Below are positions 10,280 to 10,353 of a stretch of DNA of 16,881 nt, one piece after another. The stretch's first letter is position 1. Each line of letters begins with the position of its first letter. The DNA lies in the IMG/VR virus record IMGVR_UViG_3300005529_000001, positions 1 to 16,881 of that record. The stretch is one strand, 5' to 3'. Made by a program: the position numbers and the translations under genes. Source of the DNA: a virus. The notes under the pieces are model-generated. The model was not told the DNA's origin, ran no database searches, and saw only the letters and a program-made list of their open reading frames with translations.

Positions 10280-10353
10280 TGCTGACGGCGGGAGTCGAAC
10301 CCGCAGAACCCTGCTTCTAAGGCAGGTATGTATGCCTGTTCCATCACGTCAGC
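10280..10353 (-). tRNA. type-I (short variable arm) tRNA with anticodon UAG (Leu-type anticodon)
   Basis: T-arm gcggg/agtcgaa/cccgc at 10288-10304. Perfect 7-bp acceptor (10281-10287 vs 10347-10353). Perfect anticodon stem cctgc/gcagg with loop CTTAGAA. Only a 5-nt variable region. D-arm irregular. Confidence 0.55.

Follow-up and report, generated by a model that had tools for sequence, protein, structure and literature searches.

The stretch of DNA analysed here comprises positions 1 to 16,881 of the IMG/VR virus record IMGVR_UViG_3300005529_000001 (16,881 nucleotides (nt), hereafter the window). It carries a dense array of tRNA genes, one of which combines the leucine anticodon UAG with the short variable loop of a type I tRNA. 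The original prediction had placed this gene at 10280-10353 on the minus strand, and the Rfam tRNA model RF00005 returned exactly the same interval and strand with a score of 60.0 bits (E=4.6e-11), matching model positions 1-71 of 71. The gathering threshold of RF00005 is 29 bits and is reached by 33 tRNAs of the window, among which 60.0 bits lies in the middle of the range; the gene nevertheless outscores all four other Leu genes of the window (41-52 bits). ARAGORN, applied to the minus strand as had been proposed, also called a tRNA-Leu(tag), at 10276-10354, with its acceptor register one base off. The coordinates of this gene, of its parts and of the features discussed below are collected in Table 1.

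The gene displays every feature of the canonical RF00005 cloverleaf. Read from the sequence and the Rfam alignment, the acceptor stem GCUGACG/CGUCAGC forms 7 Watson-Crick pairs and is followed by U8 and G9, the anticodon stem CCUGC/GCAGG is perfect and closes the 7-nt loop C32 U33 U34 A35 G36 A37 A38, and the T-arm reads GCGGG UUCGACU CCCGC, all as described earlier, with a fully canonical elbow (G18G19, UUCGA T-loop). The anticodon and T stems are indeed separated by 5 nt, GUUCU, as against 15 nt in the four other Leu tRNAs of the window. The D-stem consists of A10-U25, U11-A24, G12-C23 and G13.A22, and the D-loop AACAGGCAU of A14 A15 C16 A17 G18 G19 C20 A20a U21, with A26 beyond the stem. 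This D-arm had been taken for irregular; we found instead that E. coli tRNA-Leu and the type II Leu tRNAs in the array have D-arms of the same architecture, and that its sole difference from the latter is a U for G at the last D-loop position. It had also been stated that every other Leu tRNA of the array is type II, which is correct for two CAG genes, GAG and UAA, all with 15-nt arms, but not for the CAA-like gene counted among them, as neither ARAGORN nor Rfam at E at or below 0.5 detected any CAA or CAA-like Leu tRNA in the window. At its 3' end the gene reads A73-CCCA and so does not cleanly encode CCA. The register chosen by ARAGORN, shifted by one base to give a U-1:A73 pair, C73 followed by CCA and an acceptor resembling 8 base pairs, was rejected because the homologues carry A73-CCA, a conservation which shows that 10280-10353 are the right coordinates. 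A single-sequence minimum free energy fold lacked the D-arm drawn here (z = -2.4) and was not taken as evidence either way, its place being taken by the covariation described below.

We next considered the amino acid identity of this tRNA. The determinants of the E. coli leucyl-tRNA synthetase (LeuRS) are A73, A14, the A15-U48 Levitt pair, G18G19, A20a and contacts of the D- and T-loops, whereas neither the anticodon nor the long arm counts among them, and an arm-truncated tRNA-Leu stays active (PMC9976931, PMC6614811). Inspection of identity elements, which had likewise been proposed, found the Leu core set present in the window gene: A73, U8-A14, A15-U48, G18G19, A20a and U54-A58. When type I Leu tRNAs were aligned with the type II Leu tRNAs of the window, U8, G9, G12, A14, A15, G18, G19, A20a, A22, C23, U48 and A73 were invariant. 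Its anticodon, UAG at 10319-10317, belongs to the Leu set NAG or YAA, and what it lacks of a bacterial tRNA-Leu is the class II long arm of at least 10 nt with a stem, in place of which it has 5 nt. The determinants used by other synthetases are absent, the gene having U3-A70 and not G3.U70, no G73 or U73, no G-1 and no long arm. Under the anticodon identity rules of E. coli (Val C36, Ile U36, Thr G35, Arg C35, and U35 for Lys, Tyr and Gln; PMC9976931) the pair A35 G36 fits none of the anticodon-reading synthetases. An allo-tRNA or selC-like molecule, which would have an 8/4 or 9/3 branch and a long arm, was rejected on the 7/5 configuration and the 5-nt loop, and the possible extra U-1:A73 pair is an artefact of the ARAGORN register. 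Identities of the tRNA-Sec or tRNA-Pyl kind were also considered and rejected.

The body of the gene points the same way. Over positions 8-26 the gene most resembles the window's four type II Leu tRNAs, the best being the CAG gene at 11389-11472, and the next isotype scores far lower; when the D-arm region was compared with about 1000 tRNAs from all the loci fetched, Leu tRNAs made up 119 of the 120 best matches. Judged by its sequence, the gene is a derivative by descent of a type II tRNA-Leu. Comparison with homologous arrays, another of the proposed checks, showed that the related arrays L001, L002 and L003 each contain a Leu(UAG) gene; as in the window, L001, L002, L189 and L190 have the gene order Arg(UCG)-Leu(UAG)-Met. 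The variable region of this gene measures 11 nt in L001 (CGCGCAAGCGU, that is CGC-GCAA-GCG-U) and in L003, 6 nt in L002 and L190 (UUCACU), L189 (UCCCCU) and L222 (UUCUCU), and 5 nt in the window, and the other Leu tRNAs of the orthologue-bearing arrays keep their 15-nt arms. The window gene and that of L002 have the acceptor stem in common and differ in the D, anticodon and T stems by paired substitutions. The short-arm Leu(UAG) genes of L002 (8969-9045), L222 and L192 were seen to carry C33 and not U33 (loop CCUAGAA), with perfectly compensated stems.

A sensitive blastn search of annotated phage genomes with the 74 nt of the gene matched 181 records, mostly T5-like Demerecviridae of Escherichia, Salmonella, Aeromonas and Proteus, and the matched feature is usually annotated as tRNA-Leu. 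Among the relatives is tRNAL1 of coliphage BF23 (AJ604530), which is 77 nt long including CCA, has 84% identity to the window gene over positions 8-64, and reads GCGUGAU-UG-AUGG-AAUUGGCAU-ACAU-A-CCGUC-CUUAGAA-GUCGG-GUUUU-GAGGG-UUCGAAU-CCCUU-GUCACGC-A-CCA. The depositors of AJ604530 annotated tRNAL1 as a tRNA-Leu reading CUA and noted that replacing its anticodon by CUA yielded an effective amber suppressor in E. coli, as one would expect of a tRNA charged by a synthetase that disregards the anticodon.

To place the gene within a wider family, viral, metagenome and genome collections were scanned for a D-loop plus UAG anticodon pattern and the hits were parsed by ARAGORN. A first DNA pattern, TGNNGGAACAGGCANAC, was too loose and returned at least 120 mostly unrelated stretches, with some short-arm Leu-anticodon tRNAs incidentally among them. 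The pattern-retrieved set contained 58 distinct Leu-anticodon tRNAs with a variable region of 9 nt or less, 55 of them with 6 nt or less. UAG was the anticodon of 30 of the 58, the others being CAA, UAA, CAG, GAG and AAG, and A73 was present in 52; the window gene and one other count as exceptions solely through the shifted register of ARAGORN. We then aligned 23 distinct type I UAG sequences, including that of the window, to the short-arm cloverleaf. Standard pairs filled 99.8% of 460 cells, 19 of 20 pairs had changed on both sides, and the covariation score was 0.97 against 0.23 for shuffled alignments (none of 500 reached 0.97) and 0.14-0.21 with slid partners, all of these figures being inflated by the relatedness of the 23 sequences. 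Every helix contains several different pair types, which marks these genes as working tRNAs and not relics.

The loss of the arm is largely a property of Leu tRNAs. In the same loci long arms were kept in 59 of 61 Ser and 17 of 18 Tyr tRNAs, while 55 of 193 distinct Leu tRNAs had a variable region of 6 nt or less, and this fits the need of the seryl- and tyrosyl-tRNA synthetases (SerRS and TyrRS) for the arm and the indifference of LeuRS to it. It is accompanied by the D-loop change noted above: at the last D-loop position 38 of 39 type I sequences have U, and 101 of 109 type II sequences have G (GGCA[U]AC as against GGCA[G]AC; Fisher 3e-26, for sequences that are not independent), which suggests that the G-to-U change is a compensating adjustment of the tRNA core. 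Arm loss recurs across several Leu isoacceptors and lineages. Variable loops of 5 nt were also noticed in Leu tRNAs with CAA, UAA, CAG and GAG anticodons, in L281/L282 (Ca. Foliamicus chromosomes), L293, L260, L192, L133, L098 and L304, and in several of these arrays every Leu tRNA is short-armed. One short-arm subgroup, of 78 nt with CCA, carries an additional nucleotide bulged out of the D-stem, and another has a 4-base-pair D-stem (GCCC..GGC) and a variable loop ACAGU/ACAGC like the Streptomyces coelicolor type. The two Ser exceptions are GGA-anticodon tRNAs of 71-76 nt without a long arm (L215 313-388 and L193 11444-11514), which is unexpected because SerRS depends on the arm. Arrays that hold the closest short-arm Leu(UAG) relatives contained further RNAs: a ROOL RNA in L215 (2432-3000, 314 bits), and in L135 and L193 a transfer-messenger RNA, two amber-reading tRNAs with the anticodon CUA and a tRNA-Phe(AAA), the coordinates of these RNA features in L135 being 4350-4717, 4814-4890 and 5394-5468.

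The 35 tRNA genes that ARAGORN found in the 16.9 kb of the window (about 2.1 per kb) all share the minus strand, which makes it an L-array, or tRNA array unit, by the definition of at least 20 co-oriented tRNA genes at 2 or more per kb (PMC4758250). No other gene of the window has the anticodon UAG, and CUA accounts for 17 of the 212 Leu codons in the open reading frames (ORFs) of the window. The array also holds a bacterial class A RNase P RNA, which is likely the 5'-processing ribozyme for polycistronic tRNA transcripts; it is complete, lies directly 3' of a tRNA-Leu(CAG), and occupies the same place in L001 (7687-8044) and L002 (8142-8496), and a class B RNase P RNA is found instead in a different array, L215 (562-886). 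Small proteins encoded between the tRNAs comprise PTH2, an RF1-like GGQ protein, NADAR, YspA/SLOG, two HNH proteins, a DSP/Rit1-like phosphatase and a small nucleotidyltransferase. The RF1-like protein is a release-factor fragment conserved in L001-L006; it reaches 180 bits with RF1 models but 85 bits with PrfH. Several ORFs match PHROG families, and a search with the RF-like protein brought up, as the closest relatives, viral contigs from IMG/VR with lengths of up to 114 kb. When the entire window was compared with annotated phages by megablast, the sole result was a 69-nt tRNA-Leu(UAA) match with Mycobacterium phage Phabba, and hence there is no close sequenced relative among these phages; blastn of the tRNA-Leu(UAG) gene against PLSDB plasmids gave zero matches.

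Table 1. Coordinates of the tRNA-Leu(UAG) gene, its parts, neighbouring features of the window, and repair-linked loci (the latter in the numbering of each locus)
Feature	Coordinates	Strand	Remarks
Type I tRNA-Leu(UAG), short variable loop	10280..10353	-	74 nt, G1 to discriminator A73; Rfam, ARAGORN, covariation in 23 homologues
Leu-type D-arm	10328..10344	-	Rfam alignment; A10-G13 / A14-U21 / A22-U25
Anticodon U34 A35 G36	10317..10319	-	Within loop CUUAGAA (10321-10315); A at position 37, not G
Variable loop G44 U45 U46 C47 U48	10305..10309	-	5 nt; U48 able to form Levitt pair with A15
Discriminator A73	10280	-	CCCA next (10279-10276)
tRNA-Arg(UCG), upstream neighbour	10362..10436	-	8 nt before G1 of tRNA-Leu(UAG); ARAGORN, Rfam
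tRNA-Met(CAU), downstream neighbour	10116..10190	-	ARAGORN, Rfam
Type II tRNA-Leu(CAG)	11389..11472	-	15-nt variable arm; D-arm closest to tRNA-Leu(UAG) within the window
Type II tRNA-Leu(CAG)	6786..6868	-	15-nt variable arm; ARAGORN, Rfam
Type II tRNA-Leu(GAG)	11879..11962	-	15-nt variable arm; ARAGORN, Rfam
Type II tRNA-Leu(UAA)	12767..12850	-	15-nt variable arm; ARAGORN, Rfam
RNase P RNA, bacterial class A	11028..11385	-	Rfam RF00010, 267 bits; inside the tRNA array
PTH2 peptidyl-tRNA hydrolase	4197-4727		Among tRNAs
Release-factor fragment	8929-9519	-	196 amino acids; GGQ domain and end of PCRF domain, N-terminal half absent
RtcB-/repair-linked locus L286	309-1877		
RtcB-/repair-linked locus L178	796-5927		
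RtcB-/repair-linked locus L304	89-7002		
RtcB-/repair-linked locus L277	872-3970		
RtcB-/repair-linked loci L156, L229, L260, L292, L293, L307, L145, L228			

Some further details of the array were observed. Adjacent tRNA genes overlap by one or two bases at 13643-13789 (Phe/Phe) and 13876-14022 (Pro/Thr), the ARAGORN calls Pro(tgg) at 13876-13950 and Thr(ggt) at 13036-13110 are below the Rfam threshold, and a tRNA-like remnant at 5487-5553 is likewise sub-threshold (28.6 bits). A37 stands in place of G37 in three of the window's four CUN-reading Leu tRNAs (N, any nucleotide), namely UAG (10315), CAG at 11389-11472 (11429-11435 region) and GAG (11919-11925 region), so that these three are without the m1G37 (TrmD) site that bacterial tRNA-Leu(CUN) typically has; G37 is present in the CAG gene at 6786-6868.

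Taking these observations together, and arguing from sequence comparison, we consider it likely that the gene encodes a functional elongator tRNA-Leu(UAG), its arm reduced to a 5-nt loop, that reads CUA/CUN and is leucylated by a bacterial-type LeuRS; its expression, leucylation and decoding in this phage-host pair are what we infer. The tRNA would be transcribed with its neighbours in the dense single-strand array of the predicted phage, excised by RNase P and 3' processing, and its CCA completed by the CCA-adding enzyme of the host. The host LeuRS, if of the type that reads neither the anticodon nor the long arm, would then recognize A73 and the elbow core (U8-A14, A15-U48, G18G19-U55C56, A20a). 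On the ribosome the leucylated tRNA would decode CUA and probably also, by wobble at U34, CUG or other CUN codons, and would thereby complete a CUN box that the array otherwise serves by CAG (two genes) and GAG.

Several points weigh against this reading. To the LeuRS of Aquifex the orientation of the arm reportedly matters. E. coli LeuRS failed in vitro to charge the type I tRNA-Leu(CAA) of S. coelicolor (PMC6614811), and the recognition elements of the Aquifex enzyme include A73 and the tRNA core (PMC2377443). Independence of the arm is therefore not universal among bacterial LeuRSs. The BF23 suppressor annotation names no inserted amino acid, A37 is atypical where bacterial CUN-reading Leu tRNAs usually have G37 (m1G37), and CCA is not cleanly encoded (ACCCA). 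Finally, the homologue set holds many related sequences, and because it was retrieved by a D-loop and anticodon pattern, the frequencies drawn from it are biased.

The genomic company of the short-arm genes has to be set out before the alternatives are weighed. In bacterial genomes and metagenome-assembled genomes, short-arm Leu(UAG) tRNA clusters lie directly upstream of RtcB, which occurs in 11 of 40 type I loci and in none of 268 other loci and belongs to at least three divergent lineages. These clusters look like tRNA arrays embedded in RNA-repair operons, and in Anabaena an L-array has been described as co-regulated with rtcB (PMC8421152). Single cases of PrfH (L304, 209 bits to TIGR03072), Rsr/Ro60 (L178) and a divergent RtcR (Hahella ganghwensis, L277) were also seen beside short-arm arrays. 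The linkage to RtcB leaves room, at a low probability, for arm-less Leu tRNAs as damage-resistant spares.

The original prediction had suggested that a type I tRNA reading CUA/CUG may be charged with a different amino acid or act as a decoy or competitor, and neither idea is supported by what we found. It is true that arm loss removes one feature separating Leu from class I tRNAs and that UAG-anticodon tRNAs of other identity exist in fungal mitochondria, where the yeast tRNA-Thr(UAG) has an 8-nt anticodon loop and a His-derived body and the Ashbya tRNA-Ala(UAG) has G3:U70 (PMC7609411). The window gene was compared with these recoders and rejected as one of them, for it has a 7-nt anticodon loop, a body derived from tRNA-Leu and not from tRNA-His or tRNA-Ala, U3-A70, and A73 in place of the G73 or U73 of several other isotypes. 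It keeps all Leu determinants, its A35 G36 misfits the anticodon-reading synthetases, and ordinary conserved ORFs of the window make use of CUA, so that recoding of CUA/CUN by a non-Leu amino acid appears highly improbable. An uncharged decoy, sponge or competitor acting on toxins, synthetases or the ribosome, or a tRNA working outside translation, is hardly more probable. A sponge role has been speculated for the L-array tRNAs of Anabaena (PMC8421152), and the imperfect CCA might be read in its favour; however, many further tRNAs of the window are also without an encoded CCA, and 23 of the 26 Anabaena array tRNAs are aminoacylated in vivo, according to the same paper. The acceptor, the T-loop, the 7-nt anticodon loop with U33 and the identity nucleotides are moreover completely conserved under strong compensatory evolution, as a tRNA active in translation requires, and the BF23 homologue works in translation as a suppressor according to its depositors. 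Least probable of all is a decaying pseudogene, a duplicated tRNA-Leu with its arm deleted. Arrays do hold pseudogenes (3 of 26 tRNAs in Anabaena, same source), the window has its own remnant, and C33 replaces U33 in some relatives; against this stand a score of 60 bits that exceeds those of the type II Leu tRNAs of the array, stems that are all perfect, compensatory substitutions in every helix among the homologues, and the conserved position of what is the sole UAG isoacceptor.

A different proposal concerns the reason for the short arm and would refine a leucylated, CUN-reading tRNA rather than replace it. The arm may have been lost as an adaptive counter-defence and not by neutral reduction: a Leu tRNA without the arm, and with A37, supplied by the phage or L-array, would escape a host tRNase or toxin that recognizes the type II arm or the native anticodon loop, and CUN codons could still be read in an infected or translationally stressed cell. 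Neutralisation of tRNA-targeting defences (PARIS, retron PtuAB and PrrC) by phage tRNAs is documented, as are escape mutations in such tRNAs (PMC10264068). The tRNAs of the window are mixed with translation-rescue genes (PTH2 and the truncated RF1-like GGQ protein), short-arm arrays adjoin RtcB as well as PrfH, Rsr/Ro60 and RtcR, and arm loss recurs across Leu isoacceptors and lineages and covaries with the D-loop U. Human SLFN11 reportedly cleaves type II tRNAs. No bacterial nuclease specific for the tRNA-Leu arm is known, however, or was found in the literature searched. The one bacterial Schlafen examined has Lys, Met, Ala and similar tRNAs as its substrates, cut in the anticodon arm, and not type II tRNAs (PMC13056530), the RtcB association comes from a biased and partly redundant sample, and relaxed constraint suffices to explain the loss because LeuRS ignores the arm. 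We therefore regard counter-defence as unlikely, though less so than recoding, a decoy or decay. Slightly less likely again is the broader form of the idea, in which arm loss throughout phage arrays and RtcB-, PrfH- or RtcR-linked arrays is an adaptation rather than drift and leaves the tRNA chargeable by LeuRS and invisible to a nuclease or toxin that recognizes class II tRNAs or the G37-bearing native anticodon loop of Leu tRNAs; the D-loop G-to-U change would then stabilise the arm-less core. If true, it would define a structural class of nuclease-resistant replacement tRNAs.

Reviews describe Leu tRNAs as long-armed everywhere except in animal mitochondria (PMC9976931), and the type I tRNA-Leu of S. 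coelicolor was presented as a rarity (PMC6614811). The window and the homologues gathered here show that short-arm Leu tRNAs recur in phage and mobile tRNA arrays, and annotation pipelines and isotype models should expect them. Such tRNAs are natural experiments on what bacterial LeuRS reads and may be starting points for compact, anticodon-independent suppressor scaffolds. The window gene itself would have the ordinary role of the CUA reader of its array, and the wider question is why arrays favour arm-less Leu tRNAs.

The closest known counterpart is BF23 tRNAL1. Like the window gene it has 74 nt before CCA, a D-arm AUGG AAYNGGCAU ACAU, the anticodon loop CUUAGAA, A15/U48, A73, and a 5-nt U-rich variable loop ending in U48 (GUUUU in BF23, GUUCU in the window), and it likewise lies in a phage tRNA array with HNH homing endonuclease genes and long-armed Ser and Tyr tRNAs. 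The two differ in the acceptor stem and, by compensatory changes, partly in the anticodon and T stems, and CCA is encoded in tRNAL1 whereas the window gene reads ACCCA. The host of BF23 is enterobacterial, while the window belongs to a predicted phage of higher GC content (about 56%) with about 35 or more tRNA genes and an RNase P RNA of its own. BF23 has tRNAL1 as its sole annotated Leu tRNA, beside Ser and Tyr tRNAs of 88-91 nt, and in the window four type II Leu tRNAs accompany the short-arm gene. In Proteus phage Stubb two short-arm Leu genes lie side by side, one with the anticodon UAA and the loop GUUCU, the other with UAG and a 6-nt loop.

In S. coelicolor a type I tRNA-Leu(CAA) is leucylated by the LeuRS of that organism, with a minimal loop length of 5 nt (Fan et al. 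2019, NAR 47:6369; PMC6614811). The resemblance lies in the 5-nt loop and the coexistence with type II Leu tRNAs, served there by a single LeuRS for which U8-A14 is important. That tRNA differs in being a CAA isoacceptor, chromosomal and essential, with the loop ACAGC and C48, whereas the window gene has UAG, GUUCU and U48 with A15; furthermore, its A73 is not used by the S. coelicolor LeuRS. This comparison of the sequences covered the variable loop and the anticodon. The type I tRNA-Leu of animal mitochondria also lacks a long arm and is identified through A73 and A14 (PMC9976931), but its lineage is unrelated, its core is degenerate and it is served by a dedicated mitochondrial LeuRS, whereas the window gene has a fully canonical elbow.

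The array as a whole resembles horizontally transferred L-arrays, which according to Santamaria-Gomez et al. 2021 (PMC8421152) and Tran et al. 2016 (PMC4758250) are dense and co-oriented, have 20-40 or more tRNAs with supernumerary isodecoders, and have HNH endonucleases and RNA-processing or translation genes, rtcB among them, within or beside the array, where the window has HNH, PTH2, the RF1-like gene and RNase P RNA. L-arrays are known from chromosomes, plasmids and phages, and the window is a predicted phage. Short-arm Leu tRNAs are not described as an array feature in the searchable text of these two papers, and our search, which did not reach the older T5/BF23 tRNA papers, found no paper on short-arm Leu tRNAs in phage or L-arrays. 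The precedents of BF23 and the T5-like phages and of S. coelicolor mean that this kind of short-arm Leu tRNA is already known, and the window adds to it a member from an uncharacterised phage lineage of higher GC content.

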